From: a virus
Lineage: Duplodnaviria; Heunggongvirae; Uroviricota; Caudoviricetes
IMG/VR virus record: IMGVR_UViG_3300037067_027627
DNA length: 17,295 nucleotides
Strand: one strand, 5' to 3'
The notes beneath the pieces were generated by a model. The model worked only from the letters and a program-made list of their open reading frames with translations. It had not been told where the DNA came from and searched no databases. The translations under genes were made by a program, and so were the position numbers. The stretch's first letter is position 1. Every line of letters begins with the position of its first letter. This document shows positions 5,401 through 17,295 of this stretch, one piece after another.

Positions 5401-6113
5401 AGTTTATCCCTGTTGTCACTAACACGTATGTAATCACACTGGGTATCGTTCAGGAAATCTTCCGGGACTTTGCTCAGGTCGATAATTCTCCAGTTGTTGT
5501 TTTGGCTGATTACACTGTCAAAGCAGTTCATCATGTTGTTAAGATCTCGTCTCCGGCAACTGTCGTGTTTCAAATACTGGGGGTATCGTGAAATTATAGA
5601 CTGGACATCTTCCATTACTTTTCCAAACGATGGTTCTGCTGTCGGGGTTAATTTTTTTCCACTTTTACCAGTGGATCTTACAATACGGCTACCATCAGGA
5701 TTTGACAACGGTTCTGTATATCCTCGCAATGCGCTATAGGATTCGATGATTTTTGGAACGCACGACATTACATTGCGGGTGTCTGGTTTTTTTCCGCGCA
5801 ATGTAGGAGCAATGCACAGTGGCTGATCTAAATCTATCTCCGGATCTGACAAATACTCGTATATTATCGGGTTAACTGAGTTTTTATTTGCAGAACCCCC
5901 GCTAAACGCCAATGATCCACCGTATATAATATCTTCGAGGATGTGTTCTATACACGAGACAGATTCCGATTCTGTGATCGACATGTATATGGGATCTCCG
6001 GACTTTATTGATTTAAAACAATTATCAATATATTGTACATTGTTATAAGTACTGCCGCCCTTTCCATATAAAACGCCTTGATCTTTTTGATCTTTGATAG
6101 AATGCAACACCAT
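2499..6113 (-). CDS. 1204-aa hypothetical multidomain protein with N-terminal paired-Cys degenerate repeats
   Basis: Uninterrupted 3.6-kb ORF with a GGTG SD-like sequence upstream of the ATG. No family recognised with confidence. Confidence 0.85.
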   Translation of the reverse strand: MVLHSIKDQKDQGVLYGKGGSTYNNVQYIDNCFKSIKSGDPIYMSITESESVSCIEHILEDIIYGGSLAFSGGSANKNSVNPIIYEYLSDPEIDLDQPLCIAPTLRGKKPDTRNVMSCVPKIIESYSALRGYTEPLSNPDGSRIVRSTGKSGKKLTPTAEPSFGKVMEDVQSIISRYPQYLKHDSCRRRDLNNMMNCFDSVISQNNNWRIIDLSKVPEDFLNDTQCDYIRVSDNRDKLATEQAEKNKVSCYEKVIRLALRNNVPNLHSTSSAYANTLLIGMLESGRFDKEIVQESSNCNSTTANYASCFSMMIDRLWVDGNASPFKAINLIVKKFSKNHAIDAESIDSPFYGNKCSETNPSTNKTVMVNCLDQMFNRVVRVSPASESRLTSASLPSDFTAFNNLRDTLIRSDEFVNQPCRIIEALYNITPSADQPTDMMRTLMDIKTILNLDPSKSGNVFDSLKNLTATTCQNDIYGSVPMHEVNAFDLLVEKGAPIRALTGNPTYAGEILPLLNQENCNSVESGIKVNCLEKIASELYSNDKYVHAHYIISNVFGKLTYPETLSRIKSLTKAGRITQLDESNLMKNYIVVSSKENGKSIGLDDVLTDTMANLVDKYSHDPNYNVRTSTIPSTLSNVMERGYTSRVAKIADIHQWAYVNVSKYGYNTSFRNFVSYLIQSERNFGALSEDDVNHIINTMSPQIFDTSNFEYASDILTKWYDKYDETTKTIIRDNFVKYLDDARSTTSPGYRASVDHQLHNIKGDLRYVEVIDGSTRSKNNAINKFAKYIGIPSESDSTPIEPYTPTYENRAKYDVSCMKDMNANLPYKGSMRFVQRLIDDPVTSTTMRPDPFGIVGSYRVNPGEEKWTDSRLYRYAKSVGSLLHGGYIRKPYIEYEKYTQVGLHAVLAPMLVSESYGNRKDKTTATPKITFKPASSISEHYVELKRTNNDVQVKLEYIDDATGKPVDALTKVFGFRELLTSLPRKLLRKLQEINPDLFGLIQLVTSHEDAASKGGDHYTLNITNKPMDIARISSCNVWDDNSCMRIGDNDSIGRGHGGYCNTVHSYIDFGSYVAYLTKDSPYEPKWFARLLMHRCKRGNNDYLSVQTACNHYDVDPNYHKHWDIVYDAVQIILADNGVNATCNGSCTYLWNDKSDEDGSEYVDYTDTSGCAKYTKGDADYRNILKMRTDQDADSSLFVKKVLDTF

Positions 6114-7597: not shown

Positions 7598-8347
7598 GTG
7601 CCAGCAGCATGGGAAATATTTTCAGATATTCCGACTATACTAGAATCTGGAGTAAACCTGCAAGTGAGCAAACAGGGAGGAAGAAAACTCGCGGTTTTGA
7701 TACCACACACCGGGGAGGTTTCTTCGGAGTGGTGTTTGAAGTTTAAAGATATACAGATGCCACCGGGGTCACAAGTGTTTATGTCTCGCGGAATGCCGAT
7801 TGATGTAACTCGCGAGTCTATGGTGAAATCAGCGTTGGATCAGGGGTTCGAATGGATATTTTTCTTGGATTCGGATGTGATTTTACCAGACAAGGCGTTA
7901 GAAATGTTATTTTCACACAAGCTACCCCTTATCAATGGAATGTATAAGGCAAAGAAACCCGGGGGATTCTTCTGGGCTGTGTGGATGCGTACCAAAACCC
8001 CGGATGGAAAGGAAGCATTTGCCCCGATATCATCTTGGACAGGGCGACTCATTCAATGTGATGTCATTGGAACCGGGTGCATGCTAGTGCATCGTAGCGT
8101 ATTCGAGAAGATACGTGAGAAGTTTCCAAAACTCCCGTGGTTCTTATGGTCAAAGGATCGCAACCCCGCATTGCTTGATAGTCTCGACTTGCCGGATCCG
8201 TTGATGCGGGATGTATCGGAGGACTTTTATTTCTGTATGCTCGCCAAACTTGCAGGGTTCCCAACCGTTGTAGACACCGAAGTGAAATGCGGGCACATTT
8301 CAGTTGTAAAGATAGATGAAAAAACGGTAACTCTACCGAGCGTTTGA
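7598..8347 (+). CDS. GT-A fold (GT2-like) glycosyltransferase
   Basis: WIFFLDSDV DxD motif, GTGCMLVHRSVF, SEDFYFC, VDTEVKCGH. GGAGG SD before a GTG start. Confidence 0.85.
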   Translation: MPAAWEIFSDIPTILESGVNLQVSKQGGRKLAVLIPHTGEVSSEWCLKFKDIQMPPGSQVFMSRGMPIDVTRESMVKSALDQGFEWIFFLDSDVILPDKALEMLFSHKLPLINGMYKAKKPGGFFWAVWMRTKTPDGKEAFAPISSWTGRLIQCDVIGTGCMLVHRSVFEKIREKFPKLPWFLWSKDRNPALLDSLDLPDPLMRDVSEDFYFCMLAKLAGFPTVVDTEVKCGHISVVKIDEKTVTLPSV

Positions 8348-10105: not shown

Positions 10106-10477
10106 TTATTTTTGTCTTTTTGCAAGGAAAATCGAACCAACTAACAACCCCGCTCCGATAAATGCAGCAGCAACAAACCCCGGGACACCGCCAATTTCTG
10201 GAAATAATCCCGGCGATTCGTTTATTTCTATAATTTCGTTCGAAGGTTCGCACCATACCAGAACACAGGGTTGCCCGTCGGGAACCCCATGCGATCCGGC
10301 TGGCATTTTAATACACGATGTGATCTTCCATCCTTTTGGCGGGAGGTATACATATGAATCAATTCTGTTTGGATCATTGCATACGCCTTTCACATACCCT
10401 GCTACATGATATGGGATTTCATTGTCGAGTACTTCGGTGAATCCGAAATCGTCTATAGTTAGTCCTTCAAACGTCAT
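10106..10477 (-). CDS. 123-aa protein with C-terminal transmembrane anchor (PGF-CTERM-like tail)
   Basis: Ends GGVPGFVAAAFIGAGLLVGSIFLAKRQK. GGTTGA SD. Its stop directly abuts the GT4 stop. Confidence 0.7.
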   Translation of the reverse strand: MTFEGLTIDDFGFTEVLDNEIPYHVAGYVKGVCNDPNRIDSYVYLPPKGWKITSCIKMPAGSHGVPDGQPCVLVWCEPSNEIIEINESPGLFPEIGGVPGFVAAAFIGAGLLVGSIFLAKRQK

Positions 10478-10481
10478 AATA

Positions 10482-10910
10482 TCAACCCTGTTTCTTAGAT
10501 GTTGTCATTGCAATTCCAGCTATGGCAATAATGCCAACAGCTCCTACCAACAGAATGGGAACTCCGCCCATAGTGGATGTCGTTGTCGAACCTTCGTTAA
10601 GAGCAGTTTCAACTTCTTCAAGCGTGGGGGCTTCTGACCCTTCCGGAATTGCAACTTCAAGTGTCTGGTTCTCATCTGTTACAAACTGTTCTACGTTGAG
10701 CGTTGGATCCGGAACATATCCGCAGCAAACGCTTGTATCAGATTCTAAAAAGGATGTGCCGGTGGCCGGGTCATATACCATCATTCTTCCCAATGGTGCT
10801 CCGGGAGTAGTATCGCATTTCCGTGTTTCTGTGAACCCGCAATCAGCAGCTGCTACGAACAATACTGATTGGTATGGGATGCGTATACTGTTAAATCCGA
10901 TATCCGACAT
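10482..10910 (-). CDS. 142-aa acidic protein with C-terminal transmembrane anchor
   Basis: Start reassigned to the ATG at 10910 (MSDIGF), because the TATA box lies about 26 nt upstream and the longer track ORF overlaps the HD gene. Ends GGVPILLVGAVGIIAIAGIAMTTSKKQG. Confidence 0.7.
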   Translation of the reverse strand: MSDIGFNSIRIPYQSVLFVAAADCGFTETRKCDTTPGAPLGRMMVYDPATGTSFLESDTSVCCGYVPDPTLNVEQFVTDENQTLEVAIPEGSEAPTLEEVETALNEGSTTTSTMGGVPILLVGAVGIIAIAGIAMTTSKKQG

Positions 10911-10935
10911 AAACAGATATACTTGCCCAATGAAG

Positions 10936-10945
10936 TATTTAAATA
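10936..10945 (-). promoter_or_regulatory. TATA box (TATTTAAATA) overlapping the HD gene stop
   Basis: About 26 nt upstream of the ATG at 10910, which fits a leaderless archaeal transcript. Confidence 0.5.
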
Positions 10946-11544
10946 TTTGTAACGGTTTTGATATGATCGCGTTTGACGATATCATTCCGAAGACGAACAA
11001 GATCATCAAATGCAGTCTGCTCGTACTTGTCAAGCAGCCGTCTGCGTATCGCGTGTATCATCATATCGGTCTCTGCGATGTATATTCCTTCGAACACTTC
11101 ACCAAATCCTTCCATATCCGATAGATTATCTATGCGATCGCATATTTTTACCAGTAATGTAAATTTGGGTGCGTCGTCAGAAAGAAATCTGCGTATGCAG
11201 TCTTTCCACTTATCAGTTCTGTTGGGTATAGAGTCGTCTTTCGTAAGCAGATCAACAGATTTTCCAACGTCTGTGATTTCGTCTCCAGACAATTCAGATT
11301 CGAACAATGCCGAATCCATCAACACGCAACCTTGGATCCCACAATCTTCCTTTACGTCGTGCAGCCACGCGGTTATTGCGCCAAGGTAACATGTTGGGTT
11401 GTATATCAAGACCATCTGCGCAACCGATGCCGGGTGAACTATGTAAGGGGTGGTTTTATTTTTTCGGAACTGATTTTTGTGTGCAATCGTAGCAGCATGC
11501 GATACCAATCGTAATGATGTTATATATCTGAACATTTTTTTCAC
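10939..11544 (-). CDS. RelA/SpoT-type HD hydrolase (Mesh1/small alarmone hydrolase-like)
   Basis: AHKNQFRK, PYIVHPASVA, AWLHDVKED and LVKICDRIDNLSDM match the HD_4/SAH motifs. The start is either GTG 11544 or ATG 11535. Confidence 0.85.
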   Translation of the reverse strand: MKKMFRYITSLRLVSHAATIAHKNQFRKNKTTPYIVHPASVAQMVLIYNPTCYLGAITAWLHDVKEDCGIQGCVLMDSALFESELSGDEITDVGKSVDLLTKDDSIPNRTDKWKDCIRRFLSDDAPKFTLLVKICDRIDNLSDMEGFGEVFEGIYIAETDMMIHAIRRRLLDKYEQTAFDDLVRLRNDIVKRDHIKTVTNI

Positions 11545-11565
11545 TTACCTGTTTAATATGATTTA

Positions 11566-11638
11566 TTCTCCCGACCGGATTCGAACCGGTGTCTCCGGGG
11601 TCAAAGCCCAGAATGATTGTCCACTACACTACGGGAGT
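11566..11638 (-). tRNA. trnQ: tRNA-Gln(UUG), no encoded CCA, A1.A72 mismatch
   Basis: Anticodon arm CTGGG-CTTTGAC-CCCGG. T arm ACCGG-TTCGAAT-CCGGT. Acceptor CTCCCG/CGGGAG. Confidence 0.88.
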
Positions 11639-11641
11639 TCA

Positions 11642-11716
11642 CGGGAGTGATGGGATTTGAACCCATGATAACGAAGTTCGCAACCTCGCATCTTGTCCGG
11701 GCTAGATCACACTCCC
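11642..11716 (-). tRNA. trnR: tRNA-Arg(GCG), archaeal-type anticodon
   Basis: Acceptor GGGAGTG/CACTCCC. Anticodon arm CGAGG-TTGCGAA-CTTCG. T-loop TTCAAAT. Confidence 0.92.
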
Positions 11717-11719
11717 AAA

Positions 11720-11791
11720 TGCGGTTACTGGGAGTTGAACCCAGTCCGGTTGCTTGGAGGGCAACAATGCTGCCACTTACACTTTAACCGC
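11720..11791 (-). tRNA. trnG: tRNA-Gly(UCC) with atypical A8 and C33
   Basis: Acceptor GCGGTTA/TAACCGC. Anticodon arm GTTGC-CCTCCAA-GCAAC. T arm CTGGG-TTCAACT-CCCAG. Confidence 0.85.
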
Positions 11792-11794
11792 GCA

Positions 11795-11866
11795 TGAGGC
11801 TAACCGGGCTCGAACCGGTGTTTCGGGATTCCAGATCCCGGAGTCTAACCACTATCTTATAGCCCC
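11795..11866 (-). tRNA. tRNA with anticodon UGG (nominally Pro), atypical C33/A37 loop; identity uncertain
   Basis: Acceptor GGGGCTA/TAGCCTC. Anticodon arm CGGGA-TCTGGAA-TCCCG. T arm ACCGG-TTCGAGC-CCGGT. Confidence 0.75.
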
Positions 11867-11892
11867 GTGATAATATATGTCTGACGTGGTAG

Positions 11893-11901
11893 TATAAAAA
11901 A
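11893..11901 (-). promoter_or_regulatory. TATA box (TTTTTTATA) for the UGG-Gly-Arg-Gln-HD unit
   Basis: About 27 nt upstream of tRNA position 1 at 11866. Confidence 0.6.
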
Positions 11902-11903
11902 GG

Positions 11904-12491
11904 TTAGGGTGTGATATATGTCCGGAATATGATCTGGATGTTGTTACTTGCAGCCACTGATGTTGCGCGCACCAGATATTTATCCCCGTGCTTTAGAATA
12001 TACTCTGGTGTGACCGGGTTCCACCCGATATATTGTGGTATGTATACCTGACCGAGTTCTGTTCCGGTTGCAGCGATTACTGAGGACGTGTAGAAACTAT
12101 TGGTTGTCGCAATTCCAGACATACGGTTTGTATTTACTGCTGTCATTGCAACCCCATTCGATGTCACAGTAGGGGTTTCGTATAACTGCAATTGGCAATC
12201 GAACAGGTTTACGCATTCTATTTTAAGATGCGTTGTGTCATTCGATGTCATTATCAGGAAGTCGCGTGACGATGTGTTTCCAAGATTGCTAATAAGCACC
12301 CCTGCACGCCACCGTTTGCCCTGCCATGTAGCGCGGGTATCGCCGTCCGGGAAATCTGTTGTTTGCTTGACCCACCCGGATGTTGTATCGTCCCATACAT
12401 GGGATTTTATTTGCCCTTCTTTGATCTCGTAAACGTATTCGTTGACATTTACGATGCGCTGTACGGATGCCGCAGAACCTGAATTTGACAT
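11904..12491 (-). CDS. Beta-rich hypothetical protein, probable virion structural protein
   Basis: Start reassigned to the ATG at 12491 (GGTG SD at 12497-12500, TATA TTTTAAATA at 12526-12534). Thr/Ser-rich, with segments LYETPTVTSNG and EYILKHGDKYLVRAT. Confidence 0.7.
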   Translation of the reverse strand: MSNSGSAASVQRIVNVNEYVYEIKEGQIKSHVWDDTTSGWVKQTTDFPDGDTRATWQGKRWRAGVLISNLGNTSSRDFLIMTSNDTTHLKIECVNLFDCQLQLYETPTVTSNGVAMTAVNTNRMSGIATTNSFYTSSVIAATGTELGQVYIPQYIGWNPVTPEYILKHGDKYLVRATSVAASNNIQIIFRTYITP

Positions 12492-12542
12492 ATAAACACC
12501 AATCAATGTATAATTGGTACAGATGTATTTAAAAGTAACTCA

Positions 12543-12612
12543 TGGGGATGAAGGGAGTTGAACCCTCATCACAAATTTTGGAGACTTGCTTCCTACCGTT
12601 GGAGACATCCCC
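12543..12612 (-). tRNA. trnW: tRNA-Trp(CCA)
   Basis: Acceptor GGGGATG/CATCCCC. Anticodon arm CAAGT-CTCCAAA-ATTTG. T-loop TTCAACT. G1 is the last base of the pth2 TAG. Confidence 0.85.
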
Positions 12613-13004
12613 TACAATAGTTTCAGATCTTTCGTAAGCTCGTTGAGTTTTATGCACTTCGGATCATTCACCGGAAGTGGTTCGAACCCTGCGCAAGTGA
12701 TCGTGCCGGGTTCAAGTTGTGTAAGACCTGCATCAGTTATAATGCGGAAACCAATTTCGGATTCGTTTGCTTTAGATGTGATTTCTTTGAGTTCTGCAAG
12801 ATCTTTAACTTTAAGCACTATCTTGCGCATTCCGTTGCACCGCCACATCTCTTTGTTCGCGGATGCGCCTTTTATGAACCCCTCTACGGATGCATGCGCA
12901 ACCTGAACTGTCTTCTTTCCGCAATCGATCCCGAGATCAGATCGTATAATGATCACTTGTTTGTAGGTTTGTATATCTTCTTTCTTCGGTAGTGTGTCTT
13001 CCAT
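12612..13004 (-). CDS. pth2: Peptidyl-tRNA hydrolase, Pth2 (archaeal/eukaryotic) family
   Basis: YKQVIIIRSDL, GKKTVQVAHAS, KIVLKV, DAGLTQLEPGTITCAG, with the catalytic K, D and T positions retained. AGGAGA SD. Confidence 0.93.
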   Translation of the reverse strand: MEDTLPKKEDIQTYKQVIIIRSDLGIDCGKKTVQVAHASVEGFIKGASANKEMWRCNGMRKIVLKVKDLAELKEITSKANESEIGFRIITDAGLTQLEPGTITCAGFEPLPVNDPKCIKLNELTKDLKLL

Positions 13005-13018
13005 AATTTTCTCCTGAA

Positions 13019-13090
13019 CGCCCTCACCAAGATTCGAACTCGGGATGTAAGGTTAGAAGCCTTATGTGATATCCACTTCACTATGAGGGC
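13019..13090 (-). tRNA. trnR: tRNA-Arg(UCU)
   Basis: Acceptor GCCCTCA/TGAGGGC. Anticodon arm TAAGG-CTTCTAA-CCTTA. T-loop TTCGAAT. Confidence 0.95.
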
Positions 13091-13093
13091 TCA

Positions 13094-13164
13094 TACACCC
13101 GGGCGGAATCGAACCACCCCCGCGACCTTGTAAGGGTCGAATACTACCAATATACTACGGGTGT
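13094..13164 (-). tRNA. trnV: tRNA-Val(UAC)
   Basis: Acceptor ACACCCG/CGGGTGT. Anticodon arm CGACC-CTTACAA-GGTCG. T-loop TTCGATT. Confidence 0.93.
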
Positions 13165-13167
13165 TCA

Positions 13168-13241
13168 TGGGCGCGAGGGGATTTGAACCCCTGACATCCG
13201 GATTAAAAGTCCGGCGTATTAGGCCACTATACTACGCACCC
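13168..13241 (-). tRNA. trnK: tRNA-Lys(UUU)
   Basis: Acceptor GGGTGCG/CGCGCCC. Anticodon arm CCGGA-CTTTTAA-TCCGG. T-loop TTCAAAT. Confidence 0.95.
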
Positions 13242-13246
13242 CGATA

Positions 13247-13317
13247 TCCGACATTCCGGATTTGAACCGGCATCTATGGTTCTACAGACCATCATTCTGC
13301 CATTGAACTAATGTCGG
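13247..13317 (-). tRNA. trnY: tRNA-Tyr(GUA), archaeal/eukaryotic type (C1-G72, short variable loop)
   Basis: Acceptor CCGACAT/ATGTCGG. Anticodon arm ATGGT-CTGTAGA-ACCAT. T-loop TTCAAAT. Confidence 0.93.
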
Positions 13318-13480
13318 TTGTTATGGTCTTTCCCAGACCGATTCTATCAGTACCAAATACCCGAGATTACTACCCATCTGCTCGATTTTTACGTACATTT
13401 GATCCCTCGCACCAGAGAATCGGCGTGGGTGAGCAGTCTCTGTTGTTTTTTTTCTCGCGCAAACCCCACCCACGAGGTTC

Positions 13481-14206
13481 TCATTTCTTTTCAGTTGTAG
13501 GTTTCAACCACAACGCCTCGTCATCTCCAAGAACTGACACCGCCAGCCCCGGGTAAATGCAGAGTACTCGTAAAGATTCGATTGTTGAATACTTAAACAT
13601 TTTCGTTAATTCGTCGCGTTTTCGGTCTACCGACACGTTGTTCCGTAACATTTCCAGATATCGCGCATTTTTTAGGATGTCGCTGATATCTGCGTGTATT
13701 CGCATATCCTTAGTTACCGAGAACCTAACCGCACGTAACATTCGCAAGGAATCCTCTGTCATTCGTTTACGAGGGTTTCCTACGCACCTGATAATTCCCC
13801 GTTCTATATCGCGGATACCATTGAACGGATCGTAATATTCGGTTTCTATGTCCGGATACACCATCTTGGCAATTGCATTCATTGTGAAATCCCGCCGCGA
13901 AAGATCGTCGGTAATTGTGCCTACATCGACACGATCTGGTCTGCGTCCATCAGAATATCCATACTCTTTACGGCACAGGACGAAATCTGCGTCTCCTTTC
14001 CATCCGTTCAGATTATCTATGTGTGCACGAATTGTAAAGAATTCCGGGTCTTCTTTGAATATTCGTCCCCGCGCAAGGATAAAATCGCGCATTGATTCAT
14101 AGCTATCTGCTTCTACCGAAAAATCTACATCGTTGTTCGGGACTCCAAGTAATTCATCCCTGATTACGCCACCTACCATGTAGACACTGTATATTGTAGG
14201 TTCCAT
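13481..14206 (-). CDS. cca: Compact class II tRNA nucleotidyltransferase (CCA-adding enzyme)
   Basis: VGGVIRDELLG..DVDF, flexible loop CRKEYGYSDGRRP, DLSRRDFTMNAIA, DPFNG, EDSLRMLRAVRF. The ATG at 14206 is preferred over the track's TTG at 14215 (TATA about 23 nt upstream). Confidence 0.9.
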   Translation of the reverse strand: MEPTIYSVYMVGGVIRDELLGVPNNDVDFSVEADSYESMRDFILARGRIFKEDPEFFTIRAHIDNLNGWKGDADFVLCRKEYGYSDGRRPDRVDVGTITDDLSRRDFTMNAIAKMVYPDIETEYYDPFNGIRDIERGIIRCVGNPRKRMTEDSLRMLRAVRFSVTKDMRIHADISDILKNARYLEMLRNNVSVDRKRDELTKMFKYSTIESLRVLCIYPGLAVSVLGDDEALWLKPTTEKK

Positions 14207-14228
14207 TATATACAATGGGAGGAACAGA

Positions 14229-14236
14229 TTTATATA
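14229..14236. promoter_or_regulatory. Probable bidirectional TATA box (TTTATATA) between cca and the 14274 gene
   Basis: It is the only TATA-like element in the short divergent gap. Confidence 0.55.
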
Positions 14237-14273
14237 CCTTCGCAGTCGATTAGAGTATTATTGGTGAAGACAG

Positions 14274-15341
14274 ATGGCGTGGATGTATGGTAAACCGTGT
14301 ATATTAACGGATCTTGGGTTTGAAGGGCAATCTCCAGACGGAACCGCACGACCCGGCGCTGACATGGAGTTTTTTGTTGGCTTCGACGAGGTAACCGCAG
14401 GATGTGACAATCTTGGATATTGTAACCCGGGTGCAGATATTGTATGGTCGGTAAGTGGATCACTTAGCATGCCAAATACGCAACATATCGGGCTGCAATA
14501 TTCAGAGCGATGCGGGCATTGTGACACGTTCCGTCTTATAGCTCCAAACTCTGGTACGTTCACGGTCACTGCAAAAAGCGCAAATACAATAACTTGGGTT
14601 GTAACTGTATCTTCTGTAGACATTAGCGCGGGCCAGATCAAGGTTTCTTACGTAAGGTGCGCAAATCAGGAAGAATCTGTTGCTGCGTCATCTCCAAACT
14701 GTATGTGCAATGGCAGTAACTTAACTCTCTATTTCACATCTACGCCAACATCTGTTGGAAACGGGATGGCATATTACGACGTATATGTGAACGGATCTCC
14801 ATATGCTGAGAATCAGGTAGAATCGACTTACGACACCCACCGTGATAGCGTCACCATTAGCTGTCCTCCTGCCGGATCTACTATAACAATCAAAGGCAAG
14901 AACGATTCCGGGTCATCGATTGTTGTTTATGAAGAATCAAATAACCCAATCATTCCAGTGGGTCAATATACATGCGACGATAGCCAATTAACATGTGTCA
15001 ATGGCCGGAATTTGTCATGGTGTTCGTATGCAAACGGAAACGGAAGCTGGGTAGACAATGGTATGGGAAACTGTGGTACAACTACAACTTCTTCGTTCCC
15101 GATATGTGCAACTCCGTGTTCTGACGATTACTGCGATAGTGCCGGAAATCATTATACATGCTACGGAGGATGCGCGACTCTCGATGGAACCAGATGCACC
15201 CCGACAACGACTTCATCCGAAGTAACAACTACTACAACGGGCGATCTCATGTCACGGATAAAAACATTTTATGAGAACAATAAAACAATGTCGATCGTAG
15301 GGATTGCGCTTCTCGGCGGTCTCATGCTGACGCGCAAGTAA
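14274..15341 (+). CDS. 355-aa Cys-rich surface/virion protein with Thr-rich linker and C-terminal membrane anchor
   Basis: 19 Cys by my count, 7 N-x-S/T sequons and Thr tracts. Ends IVGIALLGGLMLTRK. No N-terminal signal peptide visible. Confidence 0.8.
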   Translation: MAWMYGKPCILTDLGFEGQSPDGTARPGADMEFFVGFDEVTAGCDNLGYCNPGADIVWSVSGSLSMPNTQHIGLQYSERCGHCDTFRLIAPNSGTFTVTAKSANTITWVVTVSSVDISAGQIKVSYVRCANQEESVAASSPNCMCNGSNLTLYFTSTPTSVGNGMAYYDVYVNGSPYAENQVESTYDTHRDSVTISCPPAGSTITIKGKNDSGSSIVVYEESNNPIIPVGQYTCDDSQLTCVNGRNLSWCSYANGNGSWVDNGMGNCGTTTTSSFPICATPCSDDYCDSAGNHYTCYGGCATLDGTRCTPTTTSSEVTTTTTGDLMSRIKTFYENNKTMSIVGIALLGGLMLTRK

Positions 15342-15564
15342 TAAGTTGTGATGTTAAAAATGGGGAGAGTTCGAAAGGAAGAATTCTTCTAAGTTCCATT
15401 TTTCTTGCCTTTCTTTTAATTCTCTGCTCTTGCCGTGGGTCTTTACAAAACGAGCAGCTTCCCATACACAATTGCTTGTATGGATGATAATGGATTCCGC
15501 AAAATCGGAATCCGTGTCTTCTCGATGCTTTTGGATCGTTGTAAGATCTCCGTGTTCGAGACAT
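15322..15564 (-). CDS. Small basic hypothetical protein with C-x3-C-x2-C motif
   Basis: MSRTRRSY...CMGSCSFCKD...RKARK. AT-rich box upstream. Overlaps the convergent gene by 20 nt. Confidence 0.45.
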   Translation of the reverse strand: MSRTRRSYNDPKASRRHGFRFCGIHYHPYKQLCMGSCSFCKDPRQEQRIKRKARKMELRRILPFELSPFLTSQLITCASA

Positions 15565-15596
15565 ACTAACGTATTTGTTTTATTAAAATAAATAAC

Positions 15597-16085
15597 CTAC
15601 GATACCAATTCTGCGCAGATGGAAAGTGTGCCATCCTTGGTTGCGATTACTGACACGGGTGTCGCAGCAATGGTTGTGTTTACCCCGATACTTGGAGTTG
15701 CGATAGTTTCTCCGATTACAGTTCCATCCGACCAATAGAATTTTATTTTAGCAGACCCGGCGGCTGTGCCACTATTTGAGACGTGCGCTGTGATAGTTAC
15801 CAGTTCATCAACCGTGCATGTTGGGGGACTTATAACAACATCGACAAGAGTGAGTTTCGCCACTGGTTCCGGGTGATGTATATTACAATACGCGCAGCAA
15901 TCGGGACTGTTGTTTGCTATCTTGGTTGCACTGCCATTGGCATCGCACCGGTATTTTGCATAGAACGGGCTGCAAATACACAGGTATGGATTAATACAGT
16001 TCCCGGCACCATCCCAGTTTTTGCTGGAAACGTCTGGACTGTATCCTATTCCAATCGGGCTTCCACCCGATGCATCGCACGGCAT
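15597..16085 (-). CDS. Cys-rich N-terminus plus CARDB/Ig-like domain protein
   Basis: LTLVDVVISP..TVDELVTITAHVSNSGTAAG..IKFYW resembles the CARDB consensus. TATA TTTTTATA at 16110-16117, about 25 nt upstream (leaderless). Confidence 0.75.
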   Translation of the reverse strand: MPCDASGGSPIGIGYSPDVSSKNWDGAGNCINPYLCICSPFYAKYRCDANGSATKIANNSPDCCAYCNIHHPEPVAKLTLVDVVISPPTCTVDELVTITAHVSNSGTAAGSAKIKFYWSDGTVIGETIATPSIGVNTTIAATPVSVIATKDGTLSICAELVS

Positions 16086-16121
16086 ATAAGTGTATTTGCA
16101 ATGCCAAAGTATAAAAAGTTA

Positions 16122-16195
16122 TTCTGCCGCCGGGATTTGAACCCGAACCGCCGGATCGAAAGTCCAGCATCACTTGCCGATTAGACTACGGCAGA
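16122..16195 (-). tRNA. trnE: tRNA-Glu(UUC)
   Basis: Acceptor TCTGCCG/CGGCAGA. Anticodon arm CTGGA-CTTTCGA-TCCGG. T-loop TTCAAAT. Confidence 0.9.
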
Positions 16196-16267
16196 TACGC
16201 GCAGGAGGAATTGAACCTCCATATAAGCCTTATAAGGACTCCCTACTCACCATTGTAGTATGCGCGC
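16196..16267 (-). tRNA. trnI: tRNA-Ile(UAU)
   Basis: Acceptor GCGCGCA/TGCGCGT. D stem CTAC/GTAG. Anticodon arm GAGTC-CTTATAA-GGCTT. T arm GGAGG-TTCAATT-CCTCC. Confidence 0.88.
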
Positions 16268-16278
16268 AAGATATTATT

Positions 16279-16367
16279 TGCCCGGGGTTTCCGGCCATAG
16301 ACCCCGGGCTGACCCAGCTGCTAGCACCACCAATTCTTGTTTATACGGACGGGAATTGGAAACGTCC
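16279..16367 (-). ncRNA. Candidate structured small RNA between the two Ile tRNAs
   Basis: Two GC-rich hairpins, GGACG..CGTCC and GCCCGGGGT..ACCCCGGGC. No family recognised. Confidence 0.3.
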
Positions 16368-16368
16368 A

Positions 16369-16439
16369 TGCACCCACGAGGAATCGAACCTCGGTACCCG
16401 CTGTATCAGAACGGAGTCCTGCCGTTGAACGATGAGTGC
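16369..16439 (-). tRNA. trnI: tRNA-Ile(GAU)
   Basis: Acceptor GCACTCA/TGGGTGC. Anticodon arm CCGTT-CTGATAC-AGCGG. T arm CGAGG-TTCGATT-CCTCG. Confidence 0.88.
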
Positions 16440-16463
16440 TCCATAGATCGTGAGATGGAATAG

Positions 16464-16471
16464 TTTAAATA
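16464..16471. promoter_or_regulatory. Probable bidirectional TATA box (TTTAAATA)
   Basis: About 25 nt from tRNA-Ile(GAU) position 1 on the minus strand and about 22 nt from the ATG at 16493 on the plus strand. Confidence 0.55.
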
Positions 16472-16492
16472 TCTTTGCAGAGATGAGATATC

Positions 16493-16627
16493 ATGGCAGA
16501 AAGTGTTGTCCACGTTAAGGATACCGATGCAGGACATGTATTAATCGATTTTTTATATAATGTCATAGGAGAATATTTAGATCCAGACGAAGAGTATCAG
16601 TTCGAAATTATTATACGTAAAATTTAA
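16493..16627 (+). CDS. 44-aa protein not in the ORF track, possible AbrB/SpoVT-like swapped-hairpin DNA-binding protein
   Basis: MAESVVHVKDTDAGHVLIDFLYNVIGEYLDPDEEYQFEIIIRKI. Exactly fills the gap between the TATA box and the tRNA-Val 3' end. Confidence 0.55.
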   Translation: MAESVVHVKDTDAGHVLIDFLYNVIGEYLDPDEEYQFEIIIRKI

Positions 16628-16698
16628 TACACCCAGACGGTAACGCTCCGTCGTATCCCGGATGTCAACCGGGTATTCTTCTTTTGAATCATGGGTGT
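16628..16698 (-). tRNA. Non-canonical tRNA-Val(GAC) lacking D-loop GG and T-loop TTC
   Basis: ACACCCA TG ATTC AAAAGAA GAAT A CCCGG TTGACAT CCGGG ATAC GACGG AGCGTTA CCGTC TGGGTGT A. All 21 stem pairs are Watson-Crick with canonical spacing. Confidence 0.8.
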
Positions 16699-17096
16699 TC
16701 TATTGTATTAAGTATTTGATTCCACGACATATTAAAGTATTTCATTGCCCAATGGATTGGCTTGTGGCATGGAAGGCAAACCCGCACAAACTCTTCCGGA
16801 TGCTTAAACACGTATTCTTTCCCTTTTGGGTGTTTTATGCCATTTTTCCTGTGGCAGATCAGATACTGGTTCGATTTGCATATCGCGCATTTACTTCCAA
16901 CAAGTCTGTCTATTTCCGAATCTACGAATTTTCTATGTTCTTTGTTACTCTTTCGTCTACTCGCAAGGTTGCGTGTTCGTCTTTCTTCTGGTGTCAACTT
17001 CGGGGCATTCACAATTTTTGTCGGAATCCCCTTATGTTTTCTTCTAGCCCACTCACGCTGATAATTCGTGTTTTTCGTTTTATCTTTGAATGGCAT
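16689..17096 (-). CDS. HNH-like Zn-binding endonuclease with basic N-terminal region
   Basis: CAIC..LICH..VCLPCHKPIH. The residue usually Asn before the second CxxC is not evident, so activity is uncertain. Confidence 0.65.
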   Translation of the reverse strand: MPFKDKTKNTNYQREWARRKHKGIPTKIVNAPKLTPEERRTRNLASRRKSNKEHRKFVDSEIDRLVGSKCAICKSNQYLICHRKNGIKHPKGKEYVFKHPEEFVRVCLPCHKPIHWAMKYFNMSWNQILNTIEHP

Positions 17097-17099
17097 GTA

Positions 17100-17190
17100 A
17101 GCCGGACGAGGGATTCGAACCCCCTAACTCCGCATTTCCTGTCATGTTATGATTACAGGTGCGGTGCGGCTCCAATGCCGCCTGTCCGGC
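17100..17190 (-). tRNA. trnT: tRNA-Thr(UGU) with 18-nt intron at 37/38; atypical A8, C33 and 5-bp D stem
   Basis: Acceptor GCCGGAC/GTCCGGC with U73. Anticodon stem CCGCA/TGCGG. Spliced loop CCTGTAA. T-loop TTCGAAT. Confidence 0.82.
17136..17153 (-). other. Archaeal BHB tRNA intron (ATCATAACATGACAGGAA)
   Basis: Central helix CCTG/CAGG flanked by 3-nt bulges TAA and AAA. Intron stem TCAT/ATGA. Confidence 0.85.
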
Positions 17191-17193
17191 ATA

Positions 17194-17264
17194 TGTCTCC
17201 ATCCGGACTCGAACCGGAACACTGCGGTCTTCAGCCGCATATACTCCCTCTATACTATGGAGAC
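17194..17264 (-). tRNA. trnF: tRNA-Phe(GAA)
   Basis: Acceptor GTCTCCA/TGGAGAC. Anticodon arm TGCGG-CTGAAGA-CCGCA. T arm TCCGG-TTCGAGT-CCGGA. Confidence 0.92.
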
Positions 17265-17295
17265 TTCTGGCATCATACTGGTGCCTTGCCTATAT

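Follow-up and report, generated by a model that had tools for sequence, protein, structure and literature searches.

CCA-adding enzymes, PTH2 and HD alarmone hydrolases have all been described in jumbo phages (Iyer, Anantharaman, Krishnan, Burroughs and Aravind 2021, PMC7824862), and archaeal viruses with large tRNA gene sets are also known, including HGTV-1, with 36 tRNAs, a CCA enzyme, LysRS and RtcB (PMC8651126), and DNTV-1, with 29 tRNAs, Pth2 and Rnl2 (bioRxiv 10.1101/2025.02.15.638363). The virus record IMGVR_UViG_3300037067_027627 of IMG/VR, represented here by a stretch of 17,295 nucleotides (the window), carries a truncated CCA enzyme, a Pth2-type peptidyl-tRNA hydrolase and a stand-alone RelA/SpoT-type hydrolase (small alarmone hydrolase, SAH), interleaved with tRNA genes on one strand. 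The locus is interpreted here, with about an even chance of being right, as a module for maturing and recycling tRNAs that is conserved in a clade of large uncultivated viruses or virus-like elements of archaea, probably Methanoregulaceae.

Two further bodies of work bear on this locus. Enzymes of the toxSAS group pyrophosphorylate tRNA CCA ends, and the hydrolases MESH1 and ATfaRel restore the pyrophosphorylated tRNA (Kurata et al. 2021); phage SAHs PbcSpo (Salmonella phage PVP-SE1) and PaSpo (SSU5) neutralise every toxSAS toxin against which they were tested (Jimmy et al. 2020, PMC7229694). An earlier note on this DNA built on that literature, soundly as far as the published chemistry goes, when it cast the three enzymes as a counter-defence converging on the tRNA 3′ end. 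CCA enzymes of the E. coli and M. tuberculosis type carry a C-terminal HD phosphatase with a presumed role in healing tRNA 3′ ends (Yakunin et al. 2004; PMC10673834), and RelA/SpoT homologue (RSH) proteins are rare in archaea (Atkinson et al. 2011).

The genes of the window follow one another on the minus strand in the order CCA-Tyr-Lys-Val-Arg-Pth2-Trp ... Pro-Gly-Arg-Gln-SAH, exactly the two runs reported in the earlier note (cca-Tyr-Lys-Val-Arg-pth2-Trp and Pro(UGG)-Gly-Arg-Gln-HD), with every enzyme on the strand of the tRNAs; the three enzyme identities proposed there are borne out by profile, motif and structure matches. The first gene (13481..14215, minus strand) encodes a truncated class II tRNA nucleotidyltransferase of the CCA-adding type, matching PF01743, the head domain of poly(A) polymerases and CCA enzymes (E 4e-23), and phage tRNA nucleotidyltransferase families (phrog_24229, E 3e-43) in an open reading frame (ORF) of 244 aa, with the ATG at 14206 as the likely start, giving 241 aa. 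Motifs A–E and the flexible-loop residues are invariant across 30 relatives: G12, G13, R16, D17, D26 and D28 (motif A, GG.xRD ... DxD) and R104, R105 and D106 (motif B, RRD) in the catalytic head; R79, Y84, D86, R88 and P90 in the flexible loop; and E151, D152 and R155 in motif D (EDxxR), the loop and motif D both aligning to solved CCA enzymes. A flexible loop and a templating motif D are features of CCA- and A-adding enzymes. The structural model (pLDDT 92) gives a TM-score of ∼0.7 by query and ∼0.45 by target against class II CCA enzymes, and covers roughly half the length of the class II CCA-adding, A-adding and poly(A) enzymes that it matches. Residues 7–212 align to residues 57–247 of a solved 420-aa CCA enzyme, and the domains that grip the tRNA elbow in ∼400-aa enzymes, body and tail, were not found in this protein of 241–244 aa, which aligns to that 57–247 segment only; by motif and alignment it is a class II enzyme consisting of head and neck, without body or tail. 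Its family is short (225–245 aa) and phage-wide, with 2376 relatives, many on contigs of 100–330 kb; a single-sequence pattern search of IMG/VR retrieved no relative. The viral query likewise found no class II CCA enzyme in five Methanoregula genomes.

The last gene of the order (10939..11544, minus strand) encodes a protein of 201 aa that profile, fold and phrog_990 (E 7e-18) matches identify as a stand-alone hydrolase of RelA/SpoT type, that is, an SAH; relatives start at the ATG at 11535. Taken alone, the window protein falls below the Pfam cut-off for HD_4 (18 bits vs 27.2), whereas a profile of 22 relatives compared with solved structures recovers Rel hydrolase (E 1e-23) and MESH1 (E 1e-19). 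The catalytic set, made up of the metal-binding H...HD...D, the ED pair and the DR..N motif, is complete and invariant in these 22 relatives (R27, H37, H62-D63, E66-D67, D136 and N140), and the model (pLDDT 94), a single all-helical domain, is matched only by SAH and Rel hydrolase folds, with TM-scores of 0.65–0.75 and with SAHs alone at the top of the ranking. No synthetase domain (PF04607) accompanies it.

Between these two genes lies that for a Pth2-type peptidyl-tRNA hydrolase of 130 aa (12612..13004, minus strand), which matches PF01981 over its full length (1–115 of 115; E 4e-29) and is similar to solved archaeal Pth2 chains (E 1e-15 to 1e-23) and to seven solved Pth2/Bit1 chains (E 6e-11 to 5e-23). 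Its start lies 14 nt past tRNA-Arg(UCU), preceded by AGGAG, and the G of its TAG stop codon is base 1 of tRNA-Trp (window 12612-12614), an overlap kept in three lineages (the window; the related contigs L003, at 8012-8014, and L085, at 5528-5530). An RNase P cut at tRNA-Trp would truncate the Pth2 message at UA and so deprive it of its stop codon.

The tRNA genes around these enzymes comprise 12 called by ARAGORN and tRNA-Gly(UCC), at 11720-11791, recognised by Rfam, hence 13 canonical genes, which all occupy the minus strand from 11566 to 17264, scoring 50.8–72 bits against an RF00005 gathering threshold of 29. Two extra cloverleaves, which ARAGORN does not call and which score below the Rfam threshold, account for the tally of 15 CCA-less tRNAs in the earlier note, and CCA indeed follows none of the 15. 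Two arrays are threaded into the enzyme order, Tyr(GUA)-Lys(UUU)-Val(UAC)-Arg(UCU) (13019..13317, minus strand) and Pro(UGG)-Gly(UCC)-Arg(GCG)-Gln(UUG) (11566..11866, minus strand), with intra-array spacers of 2–5 nt; tRNA-Trp (CCA anticodon; 12543..12612, minus strand) stands alone between them. All of these were detected by ARAGORN or Rfam, and none encodes its CCA end. The lack of encoded CCA, pointed out in the earlier note, is not a special signal, since Methanoregula tRNA-Asp genes likewise lack it and the viral tRNAs thus follow the local norm.

The placement of promoter-like elements and the tight junctions suggest that these genes form two cotranscribed tRNA-mRNA units. From 10900 to 17295 the minus strand has only six TATA-like boxes, of which four are placed 20–35 nt ahead of the start of a gene or tRNA array. 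One (14229..14236, minus strand) lies 23–30 nt before the likely CCA start, and none lies between the CCA gene and tRNA-Trp, the next box being reached at 12533; the CCA gene, a micro-ORF, Tyr-Lys-Val-Arg, Pth2 and Trp can on this ground be read as a single unit. Another (11893..11900, minus strand) lies 27–34 nt before tRNA-Pro, the stretch from tRNA-Pro into the body of the SAH gene has none, and the following box (10936-10943, minus strand) coincides with the final bases of that gene, so that Pro-Gly-Arg-Gln-SAH would make up a second unit, in which the SAH start lies 20–30 nt past tRNA-Gln both here (21–30 nt) and in L085. Public sequencing runs containing window DNA were one from groundwater and one from landfill, with no RNA run among them.

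The same order recurs in L003 (a 75.9-kb contig), L085/L086 and L090, whose proteins are only 46–64% identical to those of the window; because of this recurrence the layout is not attributable to chance. In L090 the Tyr and Trp genes are not called by ARAGORN, and the contig ends before any SAH could appear. Conserved co-occurrence of the enzymes with tRNA genes, which the earlier note had proposed to look for, is supported by these contigs, and co-transcription is probable judging from the sequence. Other genes have been inserted between the conserved ones in relatives: an AAA_28 ATPase before the SAH gene, beta-helix and PKD proteins, and an archaeal release factor just before Pth2. The last of these (L085 4074-5153) is a 359-aa frame encoding a full aRF1/eRF1 homologue with NIKS and GGQ motifs, directly preceding and overlapping Pth2. 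The gene caller had retained only its last 144 aa; it places a release factor on a virus-like element. In the same contig an HNH_3 endonuclease gene (605-1003) is inserted beside an Ile-Ile-Glu tRNA cluster. Close relatives of all three enzymes were found on metagenome contigs only, and a megablast search of the whole window against GenBank phages returned no match.

The element is probably a large uncultivated virus or virus-like element. Several sequence features point to an archaeal host, in keeping with the archaeal setting supposed in the earlier note: tRNA identity elements, including C1-G72 and a short variable arm in the window tRNA-Tyr(GUA) (archaeal/eukaryal type) and A1-U72 in the tRNA-Met of one relative; TATA-like boxes ∼25–35 nt upstream of starts; the aRF1 of one relative; the archaeal origin of the cellular proteins closest to Pth2; and the SAH tree. 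Among these the SAH is the strongest lead to the host, which from its phylogeny is probably a Methanoregulaceae (Methanoregula-type) methanogen. The nearest cellular SAHs are 35–45% identical and almost all from Methanoregulaceae, none in the species-representative genomes exceeding 45%; the best 79 genome loci are nearly all from Methanoregula or other Methanoregulaceae, complete chromosomes included. In a quick maximum-likelihood tree (IQ-TREE, without the PaSpo and PbcSpo reference sequences), the viral SAHs form a clade (support 100) within a group (support 95) almost wholly of Methanoregulaceae, and the support-95 branch separates them from the bacterial-phage SAHs, so that no kinship with the tested phage groups was recovered. 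By descent, then, the viral SAH is a member of a Methanoregulaceae chromosomal family. The other two enzymes have different affinities, the CCA enzyme with its phage-wide family and Pth2 with archaea other than Methanoregula (45–51% identity to other archaea vs 37–39% to Methanoregula), which implies three separate gene origins.

The chromosomal context of the host-family SAH is that of housekeeping genes. It directly follows prefoldin-beta in 46 of the 69 Methanoregulaceae loci with enough upstream sequence, as the last gene of an L15e-Rpp30-Pop5-proteasome alpha-SBDS-prefoldin beta superoperon (L094 1117-6558 and 45 other loci), which includes the RNase P subunits Rpp30 and Pop5, with tRNA genes beginning ∼1.8 kb beyond the SAH. 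Within IMG/VR, about one fifth of SAH loci have at least 10 tRNAs within 20 kb, with the SAH 1–5 kb away; nearly all belong to one broad lineage and are for that reason not counted as independent recurrence. In a further SAH case (L114 5980-9191 and L174), a contig labelled as a metagenome-assembled genome of Microbacter, Bacteroidota, encodes an SAH, an AsnC-like protein, a 305-aa ORF and a pentapeptide protein, all four with identical counterparts in part of a 2.9-Mb Methanoregulaceae chromosome, and this contig is probably mis-binned.

Outside the archaeal clade, proximity of the CCA enzyme and SAH has been seen in phages. SAH-like genes are present in 14 of 48 IMG/VR records with a short CCA enzyme, and among 13 non-redundant records the gap between the two is no more than 2 kb in four (0.39 expected under uniform placement, P 4e-4) and no more than 10 kb in six (1.87 expected, P 0.004). 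Pth2 and SAH are neighbours in two related jumbo-phage contigs (L010/L011), with no tRNAs nearby.

Combining these observations, the two units would be transcribed from archaeal TATA-type promoters as tRNA-mRNA polycistrons (CCA/micro-ORF/Tyr-Lys-Val-Arg/Pth2/Trp and Pro-Gly-Arg-Gln/SAH), from which host RNase P and tRNase Z would presumably excise the tRNAs and so free the mRNAs of the enzymes. Completing the CCA-less tRNAs of the element with CCA and rebuilding damaged ends would then fall to the truncated class II enzyme, and Pth2 would recover tRNAs trapped as dropped-off peptidyl-tRNA. The SAH, taken over from the SAH lineage of the host family, would most likely strip a 3′-(pyro)phosphate; the target favoured here is tRNA 3′ ends, which would thereby be returned as substrates of the CCA enzyme, in a split analogue of the HD phosphatase fused to CCA enzymes of the E. 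coli and M. tuberculosis type. The module would serve to sustain viral translation generally, as opposed to countering one toxin. The closeness of CCA enzyme and SAH genes, the neighbouring Pth2 and SAH, the fused HD phosphatase and the host SAH operon with RNase P subunits together make such 3′-end healing plausible. As to the SAH substrate itself, tRNA 3′ ends are judged to have somewhat less than an even chance, and for free nucleotides the matter is roughly balanced.

Several observations weigh against the proposed module. Linkage is not obligate: in L004/L005 and L091 neither Pth2 nor SAH lies within 10 kb of the CCA gene, and L087 has an SAH on its own. The cultured jumbo phages Erwinia pEa_SNUABM_7 and Klebsiella FBKp24 have no tRNA, CCA enzyme or Pth2 near their SAH. 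The distance test presumes uniform gene placement, and phage accessory genes cluster anyway, while some of the HD proteins near CCA genes are weak Pfam matches. As the CCA enzyme has neither the body nor the tail by which solved enzymes grip the tRNA, its substrate range is uncertain, and SAHs are promiscuous nucleotide hydrolases acting on ppGpp, ppApp, NADPH and PAPS.

Such points lend themselves to a reading without functional coupling, in which tRNA islands merely gather accessory genes, the CCA enzyme and Pth2 give general support, and the SAH acts on free nucleotides (alarmone-like, NADPH or PAPS-type) in metabolic takeover, like its host orthologue. The three different origins of the genes, the unrelated genes inserted between them in relatives, the lost linkage just described and the MESH1 structures solved with NADPH and with PAPS all favour this reading. 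Exact junctions with tRNA genes are nevertheless kept across 46–64% protein identity, CCA enzymes and SAHs lie closer in distant phages than uniform placement predicts, Pth2 and SAH adjoin in L010/L011, and the host family mostly lacks known alarmone synthetases; this absence of coupling is rated somewhat unlikely. A dedicated counter-defence is rated less likely still: here the host would block or remove tRNA 3′ ends, by toxSAS-like pyrophosphorylation or end-cutting nucleases, and the viral answer would be fresh tRNAs, an SAH removing the pyrophosphate, a CCA enzyme restoring the end and Pth2 disposing of stalled peptidyl-tRNA. Iyer et al. (2021) interpret the jumbo-phage CCA enzyme, PTH2 and HD alarmone hydrolase in this way, and the pyrophosphorylation of CCA ends by toxSAS and its reversal by SAHs, phage enzymes included, supply a direct chemistry. 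The probable host family also offers potential opponents, as PF04607 (RelA/SpoT synthetase) scored above the cut-off in 3 of 81 Methanoregulaceae genomes in a search whose controls responded, the host itself being a prediction. These stand-alone synthetases (L171 707-3202, L173 1117-2534 and L172 1024-2013) match PADLOC PDC-S33, a candidate defence family; two directly follow a NUDIX hydrolase gene, one is fused to TPR and SLOG-like regions, and they are candidate archaeal toxSAS-like defence genes. In one genome a second copy of the SAH is located two genes away from a weak SAS-like (small alarmone synthetase-like) ORF; a general pairing of this second paralogue with an SAS-like gene was considered and rejected, the arrangement being confined to that one sequence.

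The search for RSH toxins in the predicted host, one of the checks named in the earlier note, nonetheless shows synthetases to be rare in the family (the 3 of 81), with none in five SAH-carrying genomes. The viral SAH comes from a lineage placed in a housekeeping superoperon, not beside a toxin, and stands apart from the bacterial-phage SAHs in the tree; PADLOC found no match for the CCA enzyme, Pth2, SAH or a 200-aa ORF of the window; and CCA-less tRNA genes are the norm of the host. Given the chromosomal SAH family and its superoperon position, as well as the scarcity of synthetases, the specific anti-toxSAS reading of the earlier note is weak and is not favoured over a general tRNA maturation and recycling module.

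The most interesting question raised by this locus is the role of the SAH family in archaea that mostly lack alarmone synthetases, RSH hydrolases being commonly regarded as enzymes that erase alarmones. An SAH lineage that sits beside RNase P genes and was apparently captured into a viral tRNA operon with a CCA enzyme and Pth2 makes a concrete case for a function at RNA ends. A broader generalisation, considered doubtful, is that a short class II CCA enzyme and an RSH-type hydrolase form a widespread two-gene pair for tRNA 3′-end repair in phages and archaeal viruses, of which the superoperon SAH of Methanoregulaceae would be the cellular version; the hydrolase would take off a 3′-phosphate or pyrophosphate, and the nucleotidyltransferase would restore CCA. 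If true, RSH hydrolases would have a housekeeping role at RNA ends in archaea that do not produce alarmones. A further gain is a probable lineage of methanogen viruses whose translation toolkit is very large, together with a putative example of protein genes expressed from tRNA precursors.

Other features of the window accompany the three enzymes. A micro-ORF of 25–26 codons (13321..13398, minus strand) between the CCA gene and tRNA-Tyr encodes a peptide MYVK[I/M]EQMGSNLGYLVLI..., of which L090 (from 10735) keeps the first 18 residues apart from a single I-to-M exchange, the codons having changed synonymously in many places; L003 and L085 lack this ORF. The codons after Met specify Tyr, Val and Lys, which are read by tRNAs of the downstream array. 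The 163-nt spacer between the CCA gene and tRNA-Tyr was considered as a structured RNA and ruled out (z -0.77), the conserved micro-ORF lying there instead. The 200-aa ORF, of unassigned function (11904..12506, minus strand), lies between the two tRNA units behind a TATA-like box (12526-12533, minus strand), and shares only a C-terminal stretch of ∼45 aa with L003 and L090. Two small proteins with C-terminal membrane anchors are encoded 3′ of the SAH gene (window 10106-11033, minus strand) and are kept in L003 (10609-11392) at 44–55% identity; the first of these ORFs overlaps the 3′ end of the SAH gene, where the TATA-like box at 10936-10943 is located.

Upstream of the CCA gene, a tRNA island (16122..17264, minus strand) contains six elements, CCA being encoded by none: tRNA-Phe(GAA) (17194-17264), an adjoining Tyr(GUA)-like cloverleaf of ∼90 nt (17101-17190), a Val(GAC)-like cloverleaf of 71 nt (16628-16698), tRNA-Ile(GAU) (16369-16439), tRNA-Ile(UAU) (16196-16267) and tRNA-Glu(UUC) (16122-16195), all on the minus strand. 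The two cloverleaves are the odd elements of the tally of 15. The Val(GAC)-like element has perfect stems with non-standard D and T loops (z -3.4), and the ∼90-nt element has a normal T arm with a long anticodon/extra region (z -4.8), the tRNA-Sec model giving it 20 bits only. With a GUA anticodon context and G1-C72, the latter resembles a second, non-archaeal-looking Tyr-like tRNA besides the short C1-G72 tRNA-Tyr; its counterpart in L003 (3921-4009) is called by ARAGORN as an 89-nt tRNA-Tyr.

Set against the systems described at the outset, the locus shares most of its parts and differs in their arrangement. The jumbo phages have the same three enzyme types, and the short CCA enzyme of the window falls in the phage-wide family phrog_24229; in the passages of PMC7824862 consulted the three are treated separately and not in tRNA operons, whereas in the window they are interleaved with tRNAs, accompanied by archaeal signals and, in the case of the SAH, of Methanoregulaceae type. 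HGTV-1 and DNTV-1 resemble the element as archaeal viruses with near-complete tRNA sets and an enzyme of tRNA maturation or recycling; each has one of the two enzymes, with no SAH mentioned and no embedding in tRNA operons described, and their hosts are halophiles or DPANN archaea as opposed to a probable methanogen. No report of an SAH in an archaeal virus was found in the literature searched, coverage of which was incomplete. The phage SAHs PbcSpo and PaSpo, like MESH1 and ATfaRel, match the window protein in having a stand-alone RSH hydrolase domain that agrees in fold and catalytic residues, and the phage proteins share its virus-encoded status; unlike the bacterial-phage SAHs, the window SAH groups with chromosomal SAHs of Methanoregulaceae, a probable host family that rarely has RSH synthetases. 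In the fused CCA-HD enzymes a class II nucleotidyltransferase works with an HD phosphohydrolase, there of HDIG type, in a proposed healing of 3′ ends that precedes CCA addition; in the window the putative counterparts are two genes, with a hydrolase of the RelA/SpoT (HD_4) subfamily, so that the likeness is one of analogy, with homology only at superfamily level. The mitochondrial punctuation model and plant t-elements also have coding sequences that abut tRNAs, where tRNA processing would set mRNA ends; the tRNA-punctuated transcripts predicted here are a case drawn from sequence alone, in an archaeal virus-like element. Since jumbo phages already provide all three enzyme types, and archaeal viruses the combination of tRNA sets with a CCA enzyme or with Pth2, what the earlier note had called unusual in an archaeal element is reduced to the SAH and the tight operon layout. 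What appears to be new is the interleaving of the three genes with tRNAs in a conserved layout, the probable methanogen host, the descent of the SAH from an archaeal chromosomal family and, in phages, the closeness of CCA enzyme and SAH genes.

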